A stretch of DNA of 64,000 bases, taken from assembly GCF_988243305.1 (NCBI RefSeq), contig NZ_OZ547136.1; one strand, written 5' to 3'. The notes under the pieces were generated by a model that worked only from the letters and a program-made list of their open reading frames with translations, did no database searches and was not told the DNA's origin. Numbering within the stretch: position 1 is the first letter of the stretch; every line of letters begins with the position of its first letter. The position numbers and the translations under genes are program-made. Shown one piece after another: positions 17,987 through 31,559 of the stretch.

Positions 17987-20032
<2,046 letters not shown>

Positions 20033-20049
20033 ATCGTTATTTGAAGCGC

Positions 20050-20070
20050 CGGATGCGACGCATCCGGCAC
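20050..20070. terminator. hairpin/REP-like terminator after fadH
   Basis: gccggatgcgacgcatccggc perfect palindrome directly after the fadH stop. Confidence 0.45.
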
Positions 20071-20076
20071 GTCGCG

Positions 20077-20493
20077 TTAATCAATAAACAAGGCGGGAGA
20101 AATGCCGAATCGCGTTGCCAGTTTTTTAGCGTGTTCCAGCGTTAATTTCCTCTTCCCGCTCAAAACGCGTGACACCATGGATTTACTGCCAATTTCCGGA
20201 AGATCGGAAAGGGTTAAACCATATTGATCCATAAGGGTACGAATCACGGCTATACCGCCAGGCATGGCTTGAGCCATGGCATTAAATTCAGCAAATTCGG
20301 GCGCTGATTCTTCCCACGCGGTTATTTTGGCACACACCAGATCCAGCAAGGGATTTTCAGGATCGTTGAGCAGCAGATGATCTACCAGTTCCAGCGCCTG
20401 GGTGTATTGTTCCTCGTTCTGAATACCCGCCAGAAAAGGTGCCACAGCAGTTAGCTTTTCTCCTGCTTGCAAGATGTCGGCAATCGCAATCAT
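20077..20493 (-). CDS. higA: antitoxin HigA (HTH, Xre-like)
   Basis: C-terminal 138 codons of the 177-aa track ORF equal K-12 HigA (MIAIADILQAGEKLTAVAPF...). Confidence 0.8.
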   Translation of the reverse strand: MIAIADILQAGEKLTAVAPFLAGIQNEEQYTQALELVDHLLLNDPENPLLDLVCAKITAWEESAPEFAEFNAMAQAMPGGIAVIRTLMDQYGLTLSDLPEIGSKSMVSRVLSGKRKLTLEHAKKLATRFGISPALFID

Positions 20494-20610
20494 TTTTTCC
20501 CCTTTGAAATATCCCTTAGCAATCGTGTTCCCCAGAGCCACCAACTCCGTTTTATGTTGCGGGTATTTTTCCGCAGCATCTTTCAATGCTTTTTGAGTTA
20601 TCAGGTGCAT
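20494..20610 (-). pseudogene. higB: higB toxin remnant: first ~36 codons fused in frame to higA
   Basis: track ORF begins MHLITQKALKDAAEKYPQHKTELVALGNTIAKGYFK (HigB N-terminus as I recall it) then runs GEK-MIAIADIL into HigA; rest of the 104-aa toxin absent. Confidence 0.5.
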
Positions 20611-20749
20611 TCTTCATCACGTCCGTTGACAGATTGGCAACGAATGAATTTATCTGTGTGACGGAAGAATAAACGTAGAAAAATGCTAAACAAGAGAATG
20701 TAGAGGATGGTGACAGGGATTTTTTGTTTTATGGAAGCGCGATTCCAGA

Positions 20750-20865
20750 ACTGGGCAGACATTGCCGGATGCGACGCTTGCCGCGTCTTATCCGACCTGG
20801 GGGTAATGTGCTGAACGTAGGCCAGATAAGGCGTTTACGCCTTATCTGGCAGGTAGCTGCCAATC
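20750..20865. repeat. BIME/REP cluster between higB remnant and rlmG
   Basis: gccggatgcgacgcttgccgcgtcttatccgacc and aggccagataaggcgtttacgccttatctggc palindromic units. Confidence 0.5.
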
Positions 20866-22002
20866 TTACCGACGACGCCCCAGCTTCACCGCTTTCAGCA
20901 CCACAAATTTATTATTCGTGGCGATGGTGGTGCAGTTGCCGAAAATCTTCTTCAGTTTATGGAAGTAATCCAGGTGACGGTTGGCAACGATATACAGCTC
21001 GCCGTTGATTTTCAGACAGCGGCGGGCGTGGTGGAACATCTCCCAGGCGACGTTATCGGTCAGCGCATGTTGCTGATGAAACGGCGGGTTGCAGAGCACA
21101 GCATTAAAGCGGAAAGGCTCCACGCCGGAGAGCGCGTTGTTGATCATAAACTCGCAGCGATCCAACGCCTCTGGCATGTTGGTTTCAACGTTCAAACGGC
21201 TGGAAGCAACCGCCATCGGCGATTCATCGACAAACACCACTTTCGCCTGCGGGTTTTTATCAAGCAGCGTCAGACCAATAACGCCATTACCACAACCGAG
21301 ATCGACAATCTCACCTTCGAGATTCTCTGGCAGATGCTGCATAAAGAAGCGCGCGCCAATATCCAGCCCGGTGCGGGAGAAGACATTCGCATGGTTGTGG
21401 ATAGTCCAGTCAGTACCTTCCAGTTTCCAGCTAACGGTCTGCGGCGCATCGGCCAGCGGCGGCTCGTTGAAAGTACAGTTAATTAAGCGTGCCTTCTTCC
21501 ATGCCAGCGTGGTGGTGGTAGGGCCGAGCACTTTTTCGAACAGTTCCAGCGTGGAAGTGTGGATGTCACGGGCTTTGGCACCGGCAATAATACGTGTATC
21601 CGGCGTGACCACTTTGCGCAGCGCACGCAGTTGTTGTTCCAGCAACGCCAGTGTTTTCGGTACTTTGATCAGTACCACGCCCGGCTGTTGCGGGTAGTCG
21701 GCGGTGCTGTCGAGAAACTTCACGCTCGACTCATCAATCCCGTTGAGGCGTAAATTCTCGCGCGTCGCCAGTTCGCTGATGTATGAGTCGCCAATGCTGT
21801 ATGGCTTATGTTCCGCCAGCACACAACTTAACGCACCAAAGGCATCATTCAGGATCAACACCGGGCCGCGGATTTCTGTGTCGTCCAACTGTTGCAGCAA
21901 ATATTCATCCGCCGCTTCCCACGCCTGTAGTGGGTTAACGTCATCCGTCGCCGGAAAACGTTGTAGTGTCAGTGAACGGAAACCGTTGTCTAAGTGGCTC
22001 AT
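20866..22002 (-). CDS. rlmG: 23S rRNA (guanine1835-N2)-methyltransferase
   Basis: 378-aa ORF with SAM-binding motif (VDLGCGNG) matching K-12 RlmG/YgjO. Confidence 0.9.
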
Positions 22003-22086
22003 CGGCCCTCCTGAATGATAAAATTTCGACGTTGCCCCTGAAAAGGGTGCGTGAGTATACCCTTTTTCTCTTTTTCGTGGGCGGTT

Positions 22087-22590
22087 ATGAGCAATCTTAC
22101 TTATCTTCAGGGTTATCCCGACCAGCTACTTTCCCAGGTGCGAACGCTGATTAACGAACAGCGTCTGGGCGATGTGCTGGCAAAACGCTATCCGGGAACA
22201 CACGACTACGCCACCGATAAAGCCCTCTGGCAATATACTCAGGATCTTAAAAATCAGTTTCTGCGCAATGCCCCGCCGATCACTAAAGTGATGTATGACA
22301 ACAAGATCCATGTGCTGAAAAACGCGCTCGGGTTACATACCGCTGTTTCGCGTGTGCAGGGCGGCAAGCTGAAAGCAAAGGCGGAGATCCGCGTCGCTAC
22401 CGTGTTTCGCAACGCGCCGGAACCGTTTTTGCGCATGATCGTGGTGCACGAGTTGGCGCACCTGAAGGAGAAAGAGCATAACAAAGCGTTCTATCAATTG
22501 TGCTGCCATATGGAGCCGCAGTACCACCAGCTTGAGTTCGACACCCGGCTGTGGCTAACGCAGTTGTCGCTTGGGCAGGACAAAATCTGA
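22087..22590 (+). CDS. ygjP: metal-dependent hydrolase YgjP (HExxH)
   Basis: 167-aa product from ATG 22087 ([13 protein letters not shown]...); HELAH motif present. Confidence 0.85.
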
Positions 22591-22666
22591 AAATGATGTC
22601 AGGCGTTATCTTTTCTTCCTATAGCGCCTAAAATCGACCTCCCCCCTTTCGTTAAGGATAACGACC

Positions 22667-23350
22667 ATGCAGCCCCGCCTTCTTCTCCGTATTTGTTTTT
22701 CTCGCCGGACTCTTAAGATTGGCTGTTTATTGTTGCTTATAGCAGGAGCGACCATTTTTATTGCCGATCGCGTTATGGTCAACACCAGCAAGCAGCTGAC
22801 CTGGAGCGATGTCAACGCAGTTCCGGCGCGTAACGTGGGTTTATTGCTGGGGGCGAGGCCGGGTAATCGCTACTTTACCCGACGTATTGATACCGCAGCA
22901 GCGTTGTACCACGCCGGAAAAGTGAAATGGCTACTGGTAAGTGGCGATAACGGACGTAAAAATTACGATGAAGCCTCAGGTATGCAGCAGGCTTTGATCG
23001 CTAAAGGCGTACCGGCGAAAGTGATCTTCTGCGACTATGCCGGATTCTCAACGCTTGATTCGGTGGTGCGTGCCAAAAAGGTGTTTGGGGAAAACCATAT
23101 CACCATTATTTCGCAAGAATTTCATAACCAACGCGCCATCTGGCTGGCAAAACAGTACGGCATCGACGCTATCGGCTTTAACGCGCCAGACCTCAATATG
23201 AAGCACGGTTTTTATACTCAGTTACGGGAGAAACTCGCCAGAGTCAGCGCGGTGATTGACGCAAAAATCCTCCATCGCCAGCCGAAATATCTCGGGCCAT
23301 CGGTCATGATTGGGCCGTTTAGTGAGCATGGCTGTCCGGCGCAGAAATAA
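22667..23350 (+). CDS. ygjQ: DUF218-domain membrane-anchored protein YgjQ
   Basis: 227-aa ORF with N-terminal hydrophobic anchor; K-12 synteny. Confidence 0.85.
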
Positions 23351-23428
23351 TGCGTATCTGCGCACGTCGAAGATGAAAAAGGCGTGCTACATTGACGACA
23401 GAATCCCTTTATGGAGTATCCACGCGTT

Positions 23429-24415
23429 ATGATACGTTTCGCTGTGATTGGTACGAACTGGATCACTCGCCAGTTCGTCGAGGCCGCCCATGAGAGCGGT
23501 AAATACAAGTTAACCGCCGTATATTCCCGCAGCCTTGAACAGGCCCAGCACTTTGCCAATGATTTTTCTGTCGAGCATCTGTTTACGTCGCTGGAAGCGA
23601 TGGCGGAAAGCGATGCCATTGACGCGGTGTATATTGCCAGCCCGAATGCCCTGCACTTTTCCCAGACACAACTTTTCCTTAGCCACAAAATTCATGTGAT
23701 TTGCGAGAAGCCGCTGGCATCGAATCTGGCGGAAGTGGATGCCGCCATTGCCTGTGCGCGGGAAAATCAGGTGGTGCTGTTTGAGGCATTTAAAACGGCC
23801 TACCTGCCGAACTTTCATCTGTTGCGCCAGGCGCTGCCGAAAGTCGGCAAACTGCGTAAAGTCTTTTTCAACTATTGCCAGTATTCCTCGCGGTATCAAC
23901 GTTACCTGGATGGTGAGAATCCCAACACCTTTAATCCGGCATTCTCTAACGGTTCAATTATGGATATCGGCTTTTACTGCCTGGCGTCGGCGGTGGCATT
24001 ATTCGGTGAACCGAAAAGCGTGCAGGCAACCGCCAGTTTGCTGGCAAGCGGCGTGGATGCCCACGGCGTGGTGGTGATGGATTACGGTGATTTCAGCGTT
24101 ACGTTGCAGCACTCAAAAGTGAGCGATTCTGTCCTGGCAAGCGAGATTCAGGGCGAAGCAGGATCGCTGGTGATTGAAAAACTGTCTGAATGCCAGAAAG
24201 TGTGTTTTGTGCCGCGTGGCAGCCAGATGCAGGATCTCACCCAACCGCAGCATATTAATACCATGCTCTACGAAGCAGAGCTGTTCGCTACCCTGGTGGA
24301 TGAGCATCTGGTGGATCATCCTGGGCTGGCGGTCAGTCGCATCACCGCCAAACTGCTGACCGAGATCCGCCGCCAGACTGGGGTGATTTTTCCGGCAGAT
24401 AGCGTAAAACTATAA
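23429..24415 (+). CDS. ygjR: Gfo/Idh/MocA-family NAD(P)-dependent oxidoreductase
   Basis: 328-aa product from second in-frame ATG (MIRFAVIGTNWI...), Rossmann N-terminus. Confidence 0.85.
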   Translation: MIRFAVIGTNWITRQFVEAAHESGKYKLTAVYSRSLEQAQHFANDFSVEHLFTSLEAMAESDAIDAVYIASPNALHFSQTQLFLSHKIHVICEKPLASNLAEVDAAIACARENQVVLFEAFKTAYLPNFHLLRQALPKVGKLRKVFFNYCQYSSRYQRYLDGENPNTFNPAFSNGSIMDIGFYCLASAVALFGEPKSVQATASLLASGVDAHGVVVMDYGDFSVTLQHSKVSDSVLASEIQGEAGSLVIEKLSECQKVCFVPRGSQMQDLTQPQHINTMLYEAELFATLVDEHLVDHPGLAVSRITAKLLTEIRRQTGVIFPADSVKL

Positions 24416-24439
24416 TTGCCAAAGTAAAACAGTGTAAAA

Positions 24440-24698
24440 GGTATGTAACAGACCATTGACTGACTGAATGGTCTGTCATACTTTGTTACCTGCAAAGGGG
24501 AGTAACTTCATTGCCGGTCGATCGTCATTACGATGTGTGAAAAACCACATCCGGTCACCGGGCAACCCGAAAGGAATACGCAGACGTATTCCTTTTTTGT
24601 TGTAAGTGAGACCTTGCCGGAAGGCGAGGTCTATGCATAAAAAGCAGCGGCTGACGTCTTCCGACGTTGGCCGTTTTTTTTATGTGTAAGGAACTTCT
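24440..24698 (+). promoter_or_regulatory. alx 5' leader (SraF RNA; pH-responsive element of the yybP-ykoY riboswitch family)
   Basis: structured ~260-nt leader directly upstream of alx with several hairpins; assignment rests on K-12 knowledge, motif not computationally confirmed. Confidence 0.5.
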
Positions 24699-25664
24699 AT
24701 GAATACTGTCGGCACGCCGTTGCTATGGGGCGGATTCGCTGTTGTTGTCGCCATTATGCTGGCTATCGACCTGTTGTTGCAGGGGCGTCGTGGGGCACAT
24801 GCCATGACCATGAAACAGGCTGCGGCCTGGTCGCTGGTCTGGGTGACGCTGTCGTTACTGTTTAACGCCGCTTTCTGGTGGTATCTGGTGCAAACCGAAG
24901 GACGCGCCGTTGCCGATCCACAGGCACTGGCCTTTCTCACGGGTTATCTGATTGAGAAATCGCTGGCGGTCGATAACGTCTTTGTCTGGCTGATGTTGTT
25001 CAGCTATTTCTCTGTTCCGGCGGCGTTACAACGGCGCGTGCTGGTGTATGGCGTGCTCGGGGCGATTGTTCTGCGTACCATCATGATCTTCACTGGCAGC
25101 TGGCTGATTTCGCAGTTCGACTGGATCCTGTATATCTTCGGTGCCTTCCTGCTGTTTACCGGCGTGAAGATGGCGCTGGCCCATGAAGATGAATCAGGCA
25201 TTGGCGACAAGCCGCTGGTGCGCTGGCTGCGCGGTCATTTGCGCATGACCGACACCATCGACAACGAGCATTTCTTTGTGCGTAAGAATGGCTTGCTGTA
25301 TGCCACGCCGCTGATGCTGGTGCTGATTCTGGTGGAATTGAGCGACGTGATTTTCGCCGTGGATAGCATTCCGGCTATCTTCGCCGTGACCACTGACCCG
25401 TTCATTGTGCTGACCTCAAACCTGTTTGCGATCCTCGGCCTGCGTGCGATGTATTTCCTGCTGGCGGGCGTAGCAGAACGTTTCTCGATGCTCAAATATG
25501 GCCTGGCGGTGATTCTGGTGTTTATCGGTATCAAGATGCTGATTGTCGACTTCTACCATATTCCAATCGCCGTCTCGCTGGGCGTGGTGTTTGGCATTCT
25601 GGTGATGACGTTTATTATCAACGCCTGGGTGAATTATCAGCATGATAAGCAGCGGGGAGAATGA
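24699..25664 (+). CDS. alx: TerC-family inner membrane protein Alx
   Basis: 321-aa polytopic ORF matching K-12 Alx/YgjT. Confidence 0.9.
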
Positions 25665-25769
25665 TTCGCTGTATATTAAGCCATTACTAGAGATAACTCA
25701 TTCCAGACAAAGGTGAGCTATTAATTATGTAATCGGCTTATAGCTCTTTACAAAAAGACCGCACGGGTG

Positions 25770-25995
25770 TTGGTGGCGTCAAAATCGCCGAAGCGTTCCC
25801 TGGAGGCCGGGGCGACGCGCATGGATGCGCGGCGAGGGCGCATCTTACAGGGACGTTCCCTTGCGCCCGACCCGGTAGCCGCAAGGGATAAGCTGAGGGA
25901 ACCGCGCAGCGGCGATTTTGTTCGCCAGAGCCTGGGGGTGCAGGGGGCGGCGGCGATTGGCCGCCCCCTGCGCGCTCCCTGCGGTAGTGACTTTA
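25770..25995. other. GC-rich structured intergenic element of unknown identity
   Basis: ~68% GC block flanked by AT-rich DNA; long-range inverted repeat ggcgtcaaaatcgccgaagcg / cgcagcggcgattttgttcgcc plus internal hairpins. Confidence 0.3.
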
Positions 25996-26279
25996 TATGG
26001 CATAGCACATTAAAGGAGCGCAACCGTTCTCATATACCAAATAGTTTTGCCCATATGTTATCTAATCAGCCTTAGTAGCCAGTCCTTCCCTCTGTTTATG
26101 TCAAATAAATGTAACCATTAAGTTGCAAAATATGACCTCTCTTTAAAATCCAGCATTTTTCGCTTCCCGAAGCTGTAACTTTCCTTATACTCGACCTTGC
26201 AAACACTTTGTTACATCCTGAAAGATGCGTCGACAGAACGCACCAGGGATGTGCGACAACACAATGAAAGGATCGAAAA

Positions 26280-27524
26280 ATGACTACGCAACGTTCACCG
26301 GGGCTATTCCGGCGTCTGGCTCATGGCAGCCTGGTAAAACAAATCCTGGTCGGCCTTGTTCTGGGGATTCTTCTGGCATGGATCTCAAAACCCGCGGCGG
26401 AAGCTGTTGGTCTGTTAGGTACTTTGTTCGTCGGCGCACTGAAAGCCGTTGCCCCCATCCTGGTGTTGATGCTGGTAATGGCGTCTATTGCTAACCACCA
26501 GCACGGGCAGAAAACCAATATCCGTCCTATTTTGTTCCTCTATCTACTGGGCACCTTCTCTGCTGCTCTGGCCGCAGTAGTCTTCAGCTTTGCCTTCCCT
26601 TCTACCCTGCACTTATCCAGTAGCGCGGGTGATATTTCGCCGCCGTCAGGCATTGTAGAAGTGATGCGCGGGCTGGTAATGAGCATGGTTTCCAACCCCA
26701 TCGACGCGCTGCTGAAAGGTAACTACATCGGGATCCTGGTGTGGGCAATTGGCCTCGGTTTCGCACTGCGTCACGGTAACGAGACCACCAAAAACCTGGT
26801 CAACGATATGTCGAATGCCGTCACCTTTATGGTGAAACTGGTCATTCGCTTCGCACCGATCGGTATTTTTGGTCTGGTTTCTTCTACCCTGGCAACCACC
26901 GGTTTCTCCACACTGTGGGGCTACGCGCAACTGCTGGTCGTGCTGGTTGGCTGTATGCTGCTGGTGGCGCTGGTGGTTAACCCCTTGCTGGTGTGGTGGA
27001 AAATTCGTCGTAACCCGTTCCCGCTGGTGCTGCTGTGCCTGCGCGAAAGCGGCGTGTACGCCTTCTTCACCCGCAGCTCTGCGGCGAACATTCCGGTGAA
27101 TATGGCGCTGTGTGAAAAGCTGAATCTGGATCGCGATACCTATTCCGTTTCTATTCCGCTGGGTGCCACCATCAATATGGCGGGCGCAGCAATCACCATT
27201 ACCGTGTTGACGCTGGCTGCGGTTAATACGCTGGGTATTCCGGTCGATCTGCCCACAGCGCTGCTGTTGAGCGTAGTGGCTTCTCTGTGTGCCTGTGGCG
27301 CATCCGGCGTGGCGGGGGGTTCTCTGCTGCTGATCCCACTGGCCTGTAATATGTTCGGTATTTCGAACGATATCGCCATGCAGGTGGTTGCCGTCGGCTT
27401 TATCATCGGCGTATTGCAGGACTCTTGCGAAACCGCGCTGAACTCTTCAACTGACGTGCTATTCACTGCGGCAGCTTGCCAGGCAGAAGACGATCGTCTG
27501 GCAAATAGCGCCCTGCGTAATTAA
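26280..27524 (+). CDS. sstT: Na+-coupled serine/threonine transporter
   Basis: 414-aa polytopic ORF matching K-12 SstT. Confidence 0.95.
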
Positions 27525-27528
27525 TTGT

Positions 27529-28080
27529 TTAACCCCTTTCGTCTACGGCGGAAGGGGTTTTCTCTACTTTAAACGGATCAATTCCCCTTTTCTGCATCCG
27601 CCAGAAACGAATGATATTCAGACCATTCATCAGCAGAAAACTACCCTCAATCATCGTGCCGCCTATCGACCCCGCCCAGAAGTTGTGAATCACCCAGCAA
27701 CACGTTGAAAACCACATTACGCAGCGCATGGTCAGCCCTTTACAGCGGAATAGCGCCCAGGTACTGACAATCGTGCCGATAACCGGCAATAGTTCGACAG
27801 GATGATGGAACTTCGCGAGGCCAATTCCGCCAGTCAGCACAATAAAAATCGCCATTACCCATAAGCTGCGCGTGCGTAAGGTAATCAATGTACGAATGGC
27901 ATTAAGGATGGCACTGGCACCAGCGGGATAGGTGCCCAGAAGAAAAAAATGTACGCCAATAACGGCGCTATAGACCGAAAGCTGCTTTTTGAAGCGACGT
28001 TCGTCACGATTGAAAAATGTTGTGATACCAATCAGAAAGGCGATGACACCCACGCCCTGGGCCAGCCAATACGCGGTCAT
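27529..28080 (-). CDS. ygjV: inner membrane protein YgjV
   Basis: 183-aa hydrophobic ORF, K-12 synteny. Confidence 0.9.
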   Translation of the reverse strand: MTAYWLAQGVGVIAFLIGITTFFNRDERRFKKQLSVYSAVIGVHFFLLGTYPAGASAILNAIRTLITLRTRSLWVMAIFIVLTGGIGLAKFHHPVELLPVIGTIVSTWALFRCKGLTMRCVMWFSTCCWVIHNFWAGSIGGTMIEGSFLLMNGLNIIRFWRMQKRGIDPFKVEKTPSAVDERG

Positions 28081-28162
28081 GATAAATCCTTAGCAGGTAT
28101 GGAAAAGCAAACGGCGCTTCACATTATGAAACGCCGTTTTTTATTAACAACTCATTTCGACT

Positions 28163-29650
28163 TTATAGCGTTACGCCGCTTTTGAAGATCGCCAGTTCGC
28201 GGAAGTCGTTACGCTCGTTGCAGGTTTGTTTACCATTGGCAAACTCAACGATGGTGTCGATAAATTCTTCCAGCAACTGCGGCATCGCTTTACCGTGGAT
28301 CAGCTGACCCGCGTCAAAGTCGATCCAGTGTTTTTTCTTCGCCGCCAGTTCACTGTTGGTGGCGATTTTCACCGTCGGTACAAAGCCGCCGTATGGCGTG
28401 CCGCGACCAGTACTGAACAGCACCATATGGCAGCCCGCACCCGCCAGGGCGCTGGTCGCTACGGCATCGTTACCTGGCGCACTTAACAAGTTCAGCCCCG
28501 GCGTTTTCAGACGCTCGCCGTAACGCAGCACGTCAACCACGACACTGGAACCGGCTTTCTGGGTACAGCCAAGTGATTTGTCTTCCAGCGTGGTGATACC
28601 GCCCGCTTTGTTCCCCGGCGATGGGTTTTCATAGATCGGCTGGTCATGGGCAATAAAGTACTGCTTGAAGTCATTGACCATGGTGACCAGTTTTTCAAAC
28701 GTTGCTTCGTCGCGGCAATGGTCCATCAGCAACTGCTCTGCGCCAAACATCTCCGGCACTTCGGTCAGTACGGTAGTACCGCCGTTAGCAATCACGTAGT
28801 CAGAGAAACGCCCCAGCATCGGGTTAGCAGTAATACCAGAAAGACCGTCAGAACCACCACACTCCAGACCAAACTTCAGTTCGCTAAGTTTGCCTGGCTC
28901 GCGCTTGTCGTTGCGCATCACGTTATACAGCTGATGCAAATGCTCGATCCCGGCTTCGATCTCATCATCCTGCTGTTGGCAGATCATGAAATGAACGCGT
29001 TCAGGATCGATATCGCCCAGCGTTTCACGGAATGCGGCAACCTGGTTGTTTTCACAGCCCAGACCAATCACCAGCACTGCGCCCGCGTTCGGGTGGCGCA
29101 CCATGTTTTGCAGCATGGTGCGGGTATTGATGTGATCGTCGCCCAGCTGTGAGCAGCCGTAGGTGTGGCTGAAGAGGAACACGCCGTCAGTACCTTCGGC
29201 GTTGTTGGTCTCTTTCAGGAAACGATTTTGGATCTGCCGCGCGATGCCGTTGACACAGCCCACGGTTGGCAGGATCCAGAGCTCATTACGCACCCCGACA
29301 TCGCCGTTAGCGCGACGATAGATCTGCACTTCACGATCTGCCGCTTGCGCAGGCAGATCCTGAAAATCAGGTTGATAGCGATACTGATCCAGATCGCTCA
29401 GATTCGTGCGCGTATTGTGGGCGTGAACGTGTTCCCCCGCCGCAATATCCGCCAATGCATAACCAATCGGCAGGCCATATTTGATGACGTTGGCCCCTTT
29501 TGCGATATCCGTTAACGCAAATTTATGTCCACGAGCAACATCCTGGCGCAGCGTAACAGTCTGGTTATCGACACTGACTTCTGTGCCTTCAGCCAAATCC
29601 GCTAAAGCAACCGCGACGTTATCCAGCGCATGGATCTTGATGTATTGCAT
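28163..29650 (-). CDS. uxaA: altronate dehydratase
   Basis: 495-aa ORF matching K-12 UxaA. Confidence 0.95.
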   Translation of the reverse strand: MQYIKIHALDNVAVALADLAEGTEVSVDNQTVTLRQDVARGHKFALTDIAKGANVIKYGLPIGYALADIAAGEHVHAHNTRTNLSDLDQYRYQPDFQDLPAQAADREVQIYRRANGDVGVRNELWILPTVGCVNGIARQIQNRFLKETNNAEGTDGVFLFSHTYGCSQLGDDHINTRTMLQNMVRHPNAGAVLVIGLGCENNQVAAFRETLGDIDPERVHFMICQQQDDEIEAGIEHLHQLYNVMRNDKREPGKLSELKFGLECGGSDGLSGITANPMLGRFSDYVIANGGTTVLTEVPEMFGAEQLLMDHCRDEATFEKLVTMVNDFKQYFIAHDQPIYENPSPGNKAGGITTLEDKSLGCTQKAGSSVVVDVLRYGERLKTPGLNLLSAPGNDAVATSALAGAGCHMVLFSTGRGTPYGGFVPTVKIATNSELAAKKKHWIDFDAGQLIHGKAMPQLLEEFIDTIVEFANGKQTCNERNDFRELAIFKSGVTL

Positions 29651-29664
29651 ATCAACCCCAGACC

Positions 29665-31559
<1,895 letters not shown>

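Follow-up and report, generated by a model that had tools for sequence, protein, structure and literature searches.

The alx leader of an Escherichia coli genome and its counterparts in Enterobacterales

The yybP-ykoY switch of L. lactis works through transcription termination. The L. lactis yoaB and X. oryzae yybP-ykoY aptamers are described in the literature as having two docked coaxial legs, a two-metal site between L1 and L3 and an adenosine that contacts Mn2+, all features found also in alx, but they are built on a four-way junction, unlike alx. The mntP riboswitch of E. coli shares with alx the L1 block GGGGAGUA...GAGACC, an L3 with GUCA...UAC as well as a predicted switch helix, P1.1, and likewise exerts translational control over a Mn2+ exporter that is induced by Mn2+ (PMC12153347). 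Unlike alx, mntP has helix P2 and hence a four-way junction, lacks a terminator in P4 and does not respond to pH; its L3 is 2 nt longer (UCAACAUAC versus UCAUUAC in alx).

The alx leader is itself already known. It ranks among the most studied riboswitches of E. coli, the published work covering genetics, probing, smFRET and a crystal structure. In K-12 the names SraF, pH-responsive element (PRE) and Mn2+-sensing yybP-ykoY-family riboswitch refer to this one leader (PMC9472077, PMC12153347, PMC12934788), and the exporter function of Alx has been described (PMC10197570). The K-12 sequence gives approximately 20-fold induction by Mn2+ and approximately 70-fold at alkaline pH, with loss in the A37U mutant, and its aptamer has been studied by smFRET docking and in the crystal structure PDB 9JGM (PMC12934788, PMC12153347, PMC10197570). 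How pH is sensed is debated in the literature, the proposals being pausing, Mn2+ influx, or protonation in L2. The alx-type aptamer is restricted to Enterobacterales (PMC12153347).

We describe here the alx leader found in a 64,000-nt stretch of contig NZ_OZ547136.1 ('the window'). Sequence identity, anatomy, gene context and the covariation seen in P3, P4 and stem C/D were obtained in this analysis; what is said on Mn2+ binding, on the effect of pH, on pausing and termination efficiencies and on translational control comes from the literature. We are nearly certain that the element is the E. coli alx riboswitch (SraF/PRE), responsive to Mn2+ and pH and controlling a manganese exporter.

Locus, promoter and anatomy of the leader

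The leader lies in a 283-nt gap (24416-24698) between the stop codon of ygjR, a Gfo/Idh/MocA oxidoreductase gene ending at 24415, and the start of alx at 24699. The downstream ORF matches the Pfam TerC domain (PF03741) at 1.3e-53, and the K-12 RefSeq annotation of alx is Mn2+ exporter; the leader thus stands upstream of a TerC family gene of Mn2+ homeostasis and export. Many E. coli chromosomes match a 321-nt query spanning the gap at 100% identity, and this sequence is present as a single copy, always between ygjR and alx, in 5419 of 5426 complete E. coli genomes. From the identity to these chromosomes, the TerC ORF and the near-K-12 sequence it follows that the window is from E. coli and that the locus is alx. 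The initial annotation had placed a SraF/PRE/yybP-ykoY-type alx leader here, and the RefSeq and Pfam TerC identifications, the K-12 comparison and the literature all agree with it.

K-12 MG1655 (NC_000913.3) is identical to the window at 280 of the 283 intergenic positions, so there is no substantial divergence from the K-12 leader. The locus, numbering, L1, L2, L3, P1-P6, terminators B and D, pause region, Shine-Dalgarno (SD) sequence and start codon are common to the two. Position 24463, in the promoter spacer, is A here and G in K-12; RNA position 55 (24545), in the P3.1 loop, is C here and A in K-12; and the terminator D tract (24674-24681) has eight U here and seven in K-12. All three differences lie outside the metal core and the switch strands. 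The CC at the 24545 region is seen also in the displayed alx loci of other genera, so that the A which laboratory K-12 has at RNA position 55 may be derived. A G49-C55 pair is possible in the window and would make P3.1 one pair longer.

The transcription start was fixed by fitting to the sequence approximately 20 nucleotides named in three papers, together with the sizes of the termination products. A11, U18, C19, G23, U35, A37, A114, U125, C127 and A132 fit solely with +1 at 24491, which is needed also for G134, C135, A137, G138, A149-153, C155 and A156; the published pauses (142-144) agree with it, as do the termination products of ~108 and ~190 nt. With this +1 the transcribed leader is ~208 nt long (24491-24698). 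The initial annotation had counted about 260 nt (24440-24698) as untranslated leader, of which the first ~51 nt (24440-24490) are promoter DNA. The distance from +1 to the terminator D U-tract is 184-191 nt, and both locus and sequence are those of SraF/PRE. The features are as follows.

24456-24484, plus strand: putative alx promoter, with -35 TTGACT (24456-24461), a 17-nt spacer and -10 TACTTT (24479-24484)
24491-24698, plus strand: transcribed alx 5' leader (PRE; aptamer and expression platform), ~208 nt, from the +1 fit and the folding z-score
24491-24681, plus strand: SraF-sized product of ~190 nt, from +1 to the terminator D U-tract
24492-24508, plus strand: aptamer 5' strand, comprising the P1.1 5' strand (G2-G8), the L1 5' strand GGAGUA (G9-A14, with A11 at 24501) and the P1.2 5' strand (A15-U18)
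24509-24513, plus strand: L2 capping loop (C19-G23), which takes the place of helix P2 and leaves a three-way junction
24514-24561, plus strand: P3 arm, comprising P3.2 (C24-G34 with C62-G71), the metal-binding loop L3, UCAUUAC (24525-24531, with A37 at 24527), and the P3.1 hairpin (24532-24551)
24563-24602, plus strand: P4 with intrinsic terminator B, found by terminator scan (hairpin 24569-24596, U-tract 24593-24598)
24604-24617, plus strand: aptamer 3' strand, comprising the P1.2 3' strand (A114-U117), the L1 3' strand GAGA (24608-24611) and the P1.1 3' switch strand CCUUGC (24612-24617)
24610-24631, plus strand: hairpin C, or P5 (G120-C141), with loop GGAA (24619-24622); in the OFF state it is predicted to take up the 3' strand of P1.1
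24619-24662, plus strand: predicted ON-state helix C/D (P5/P6), 129-141 with 159-172, in which GGAA of loop C pairs with UUCC of loop D
24632-24634, plus strand: RNA polymerase 'pause 1' cluster (U142, A143, U144), placed through the +1 assignment
24632-24687, plus strand: hairpin D, or P6, with terminator D (core stem G157-U184 at 24647-24674, loop UUCC 24659-24662, U-tract 24674-24681)
24688-24701, plus strand: SD sequence AAGGAA (24688-24693) and alx ATG (24699-24701)
24699-25664, plus strand: alx CDS, a 321-aa ORF of the TerC family (RefSeq name 'TerC family membrane protein Alx')

Promoter. We infer a sigma-70-type promoter from the sequence upstream of +1. The -10 element ends 7 nt upstream of the published +1, and 67 Enterobacterales have invariant TTG in the -35 element and invariant T, A and last T in the -10 element. 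A consensus promoter scan did not flag the alx promoter, whose -10 has only three of six matches. The minus strand has one promoter-like site (24438-24409), where chance would give 0.5. The -35 box lies within an inverted repeat, AGACCATT-N9-AATGGTCT, at 24450-24474, approximately 35 nt past the ygjR stop codon; the repeat's complementarity is kept in 67% of cells, compared with 31-46% when the partners are slid, with some double changes in many genera. This support is weak; the repeat could be a hairpin or terminator at the 3' end of ygjR, or an operator. A 45-aa ORF at 24468-24605 was rejected as a leader peptide, since its ATG lies upstream of +1.

Folding. The RNAfold energy of 24491-24711 is -97 kcal/mol, whereas 200 dinucleotide shuffles gave -59.2 +/- 4.5 and none was as good (z = -8.39); the leader is therefore structured well beyond chance. 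The hairpin quoted in the initial annotation, ggaatacgcagacgtattcc, is at 24573-24592, within a terminator-like stem of 12 bp (24569-24596) with T6 after it, and the U-rich tract and ribosome binding site also proved to be where they had been described. A second terminator-like hairpin (24646-24675) has its T8 tract (24674-24681) just 5' of the SD. The two hairpins coincide with the published termination sites at ~108 and ~190 nt; terminator B gives the ~108-nt product at 43-46% termination in vitro, and a product of ~190 nt was reported in the same work (PMC9472077).

Aptamer and platform. The gap between P1.2 and P3.2 is just 5 nt, and C19-G23 is described as a capping loop from crystal structure 9JGM (PMC12934788). 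A37 is the Mn-coordinating adenosine (PMC12153347, PMC12934788). Hairpin C, named in PMC3874183 and PMC12153347, is seen both in the minimum free energy (MFE) fold and in the RNAalifold consensus. The pairing of loop C with loop D is stated in PMC3874183, and the pauses at 142-144 were mapped in PMC9472077. Hairpin D is extended by an A-rich linker (24633-24644), which pairs with the U-tract and AUGUGU and so reaches the edge of the SD. The MFE fold for E. coli has the SD/start region paired with G8-U18 of L1/P1.1.

The switch and its conservation in Enterobacterales

The published work and the anatomy above suggest the following sequence of events. A sigma-70 promoter would start transcription at 24491, and nucleotides 1-127 (24491-24617) would fold as a Mn2+-sensing three-way-junction aptamer of the yybP-ykoY kind, with one leg formed by P1.1/L1/P1.2, the other by P3.2/L3/P3.1 stacked on P4, and a 3-nt capping loop at the P2 site. 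In the ON state Mn2+ would bind between L1 and L3, with N7 of A37 as the specific contact, docking the legs and holding P1.1 closed; 129-141 would then pair with 159-172 (stem C/D), blocking hairpins C and D and leaving the U-tract, SD and AUG accessible, so that Alx is translated. In the OFF state hairpin C (P5) would capture the P1.1 3' strand and the long hairpin D (P6, terminator D) would reach the SD edge; without Mn2+ the SD would be occluded, and the 5' strand of L1/P1.1, once free, would in E. coli also pair with the SD region. Intrinsic terminators B (in P4) and D (in the platform) would release RNAs of ~108 and ~190 nt, the longer being SraF. The decision would be co-transcriptional, with RNA polymerase pausing at 142-144 and before D. 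Alkaline pH would act by raising cytoplasmic Mn2+ and sensitising the aptamer, and would not lengthen the pauses.

A protein-guided scan gave 80 alx loci, all in Enterobacterales (Escherichia, Citrobacter, Salmonella, Klebsiella, Kosakonia, Enterobacter, Buttiauxella, Cedecea, Erwinia, Pantoea and others), of which 67 had alignable leaders. The L1 motif was found upstream of alx in 78 of the 80 loci, the other two being truncated or disrupted by a large insertion; leader and alx are linked in every locus with a readable upstream region. Invariant or near-invariant blocks in the 67 leaders are AAGGGGAGTAACTT, CGTCA..ACG (L3), CCGGT and GTAAGTGAGACCTTGCC. The first is the aptamer 5' block, which corresponds to GGGGAGUAG in the RF00080 consensus as aligned with the mntP control (see below); the last, the aptamer 3' block, is invariant throughout.

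Mn-bound fold. The published Mn-bound fold is paired in 95.9% of cells, compared with 32-45% with partners slid, and its covariation was reached by none of 500 shuffles. Compensatory double changes occur at 5 of 10 pairs in P3.2, 5 of 6 in P3.1 and 15 of 16 in P4; P3.2 and P3.1 are paired in 98-99% of cells. The base of P4 (CAAC/GUUG) covaries, and P4 is hypervariable in length from genus to genus. The pairs of P1.1 and P1.2 are all kept in the 67 leaders and never vary, so that covariation is uninformative on these helices. Stem C/D, a helix of the active conformer only, joins loops C and D with their flanks; it is paired in 96% of cells and shows G130:C171 replaced by A:U in 15 leaders, A132:U169 by U:A in seven, and a change at one more pair in two. 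At sequence level these compensatory changes between loop C and loop D independently support the published active conformer, stem C/D.

Inactive fold. The inactive fold keeps its hairpins C and D as well, hairpin C being paired in 95% of cells with variation on one side only. The strand CCUUGC (24612-24617) has two complements, GCAAAGG (24492-24498) and GCGAGG of hairpin C; each pairing is kept in 95-99% of cells, with invariant strands. Complementarity of the linker to the U-tract is conserved (mean z = -2.9, with z < -2 in 45 of 67 leaders). Pairing of L1 with the SD, by column counts over the 67 leaders, is kept in 69% of cells without double changes, and by RNAduplex on each sequence it has a mean z of -0.66, Citrobacter being essentially without complementarity; an L1-SD helix is thus not supported as a conserved feature. 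The comparison hints that the conserved feature of the OFF state may be the extended hairpin D reaching the SD, the L1-to-SD pairing of E. coli being less conserved.

Thermodynamics and pH. Nearest-neighbour modelling puts the cost of enforcing P1.1 and P1.2 at ~+14.6 kcal/mol. With P1 enforced the modelling did not reproduce opening of the SD, mean accessibility going from 0.53 to 0.47 (from 0.30 to 0.36 for E. coli). In these models the switch would lie beyond secondary-structure thermodynamics, an outcome which fits kinetic and tertiary control, and agrees with reports of a co-transcriptional switch, but is uninformative. The same energetic cost fits kinetic control in the original model of the PRE, the first to be published (summarised in PMC9472077). 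That model has a ligand-free pH sensor in which alkaline pH prolongs pausing at two sites and thereby gives the active fold, with no role for Mn2+ and no true membership of yybP-ykoY; in keeping with it, RNA that is refolded or made by T7 RNA polymerase takes the inactive fold, and Rfam RF00080 does not recognise the leader. The pauses, however, are shortened or unchanged at alkaline pH (PMC9472077), and the pH response needs Mn binding, being abolished by A37U (PMC12153347, PMC12934788). The crystal structure of the aptamer, and the invariance of the L1 and L3 metal-core motifs across 67 species, argue against it further, and we regard this model as very improbable.

Trans-acting sRNA. Even less probable, by a little, is that the main product is a free-standing trans-acting sRNA (the ~190-nt SraF, the ~108-nt terminator-B RNA, or both) whose structure serves target pairing rather than cis control: SraF was first found in an sRNA screen and the leader holds two efficient intrinsic terminators, with 43-46% termination at B and 10-13% at D in vitro (PMC9472077), but no target is known, conservation follows the aptamer core and the alternative helices ending at the alx SD, the leader stays with alx in the 78 readable loci of 80, and translational fusions respond to Mn and pH (PMC10197570, PMC3874183).

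Covariance-model searches and membership of yybP-ykoY

The Mn2+-sensing riboswitch reading of the leader raises the matter of how it scores against the family model. The initial annotation had proposed an Infernal scan with the Rfam yybP-ykoY model, RF00080, and this returned no match at E <= 10. With Rfam 15 RF00080 had no match at gathering in 20000-30000 or in the whole 64-kb window, none at E <= 10 on a 501-nt (24300-24800) or a 145-nt (24486-24630) slice, and none at E <= 0.5 in 20 further alx loci from other genera. Low-threshold scans of the alx leader with Rfam gave chance-level matches only (STnc370, STnc240, microRNAs). A missing or faulty model was rejected as the cause by a positive control, the K-12 mntP leader, which RF00080 matches at 44.9 bits (E = 4e-11), 0.1 bit under the gathering score of 45. 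The initial annotation was to be given up on two findings together, failure of the covariance model and substantial divergence from K-12; the first was found and the second was not.

Since RF00080 misses alx altogether and mntP by 0.1 bit, neither of these E. coli loci receives a riboswitch in genome annotation, and RefSeq annotates none at alx, nor at mntP in K-12. The mntP riboswitch (L002:968-1058), although crystallographically validated, goes unreported at gathering. In the window the only Rfam match at gathering level is to rnpB RNase P RNA (RF00010, 318.6 bits, 56043-56419, minus strand).

The RF00080 consensus has the P2 hairpin directly after L1 and a longer L3, and leaves the 3' strand of P1 unmodelled. 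We built an alx-type covariance model from 65 alx-type aptamers. On the window it scores 111.7 bits, with no other match in the 64 kb. On the mntP locus its top match is the mntP aptamer with correct ends, at 6.8 bits (E = 0.58). Given this score and the failure of RF00080, homology of alx to the canonical members is not demonstrable by covariance-model search.

The identification holds all the same, on the individual parts, the TerC gene that follows and the literature. For L1, GGGGAGTA stands at 24497-24504 and GAGACC at 24608-24613, both invariant in the 67 leaders. The L1 blocks, 5' GGGGAGUA and 3' GAGACC between P1.1 and P1.2, are common to the RF00080 consensus and mntP, and they are precisely what the best match of the alx-type model at the mntP locus aligns. 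For L3, UCAUUAC (24525-24531) lies between the 10-bp P3.2 and the 6-bp P3.1; the RF00080 consensus has the same architecture (10 bp, 7 nt, 5 bp), with its loop in the register ACAUACU versus UCAUUAC here. The four-way junction with helix P2 is absent, C19-G23 (5 nt) leaving no room for a P2 hairpin. The alx aptamer is described as a three-way junction with an L2 capping loop (PMC12153347, PMC12934788).

A negative Infernal/Rfam scan at this locus is not evidence of absence, because RF00080 misses alx-type aptamers entirely. We propose, tentatively, that the alx-type three-way-junction aptamer is a distinct, Enterobacterales-wide subclass that Rfam and PGAP systematically miss, and we take this jointly with the hairpin D feature of the OFF state and the tolerance of insertions described below; the three together are a possibility that we hold to be less likely than not. 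Alx-type seeds, or a separate three-way-junction model, would repair annotation in Enterobacterales.

The best Rfam match to the alx aptamer, at 18 bits (E = 0.17), is sub-threshold: RF02617 SSRC10 (Streptococcus sRNA 10), with a gathering score of 56. Its alignment places GGGAGUAG on L1 and CGUCAAUA on L3, and the 3' half of the model falls wrongly on the P4 terminator of alx. In this alignment SSRC10 has itself the look of a yybP-ykoY-type leader, which we offer only as a lead.

Insertions in the leader and sequence downstream of alx

Insertions of repeat elements, 100-250 nt in length, are found within the riboswitch in several genera, mostly in the P4 loop. Examples upstream of alx are, by locus number, L003:824-1200 (E. 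albertii), L017, L018, L024, L056, L047, L054, L032, L035 and L036. The P3.1 loop is the site in L035, L032, L023 and L075, and the insertion falls between terminator D and the SD in L036 and L054. The P4 insert of E. albertii duplicates the terminator-B hairpin and has sub-threshold Rfam matches to naRNA4 and ES036, families which we take to be REP-derived. Other inserts are ERIC-like by eye. The P4 and P3.1 loops and the linker before the SD would, on the tentative joint proposal above, tolerate REP- or ERIC-type insertions in several genera. Together the insertions amount to a natural map of insertion tolerance in the aptamer.

The window also departs from K-12 in the final 7 nt of alx and in most of the spacer between alx and sstT (25658-26094), with 437 nt here versus 220 nt. 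The K-12 spacer has box C-like elements by eye. The variant spacer is present at this locus in approximately 1659 of 5426 E. coli genomes, and parts of it match three to five places per genome at 80-90% identity. E. albertii and one other E. coli strain lack its GC-rich core of ~120 nt (~25813-25933). In Salmonella enterica subsp. arizonae the sRNA STnc310 (RF02067, 80 bits; L014:2190-2250, minus strand) lies just 3' of alx, on the opposite strand.
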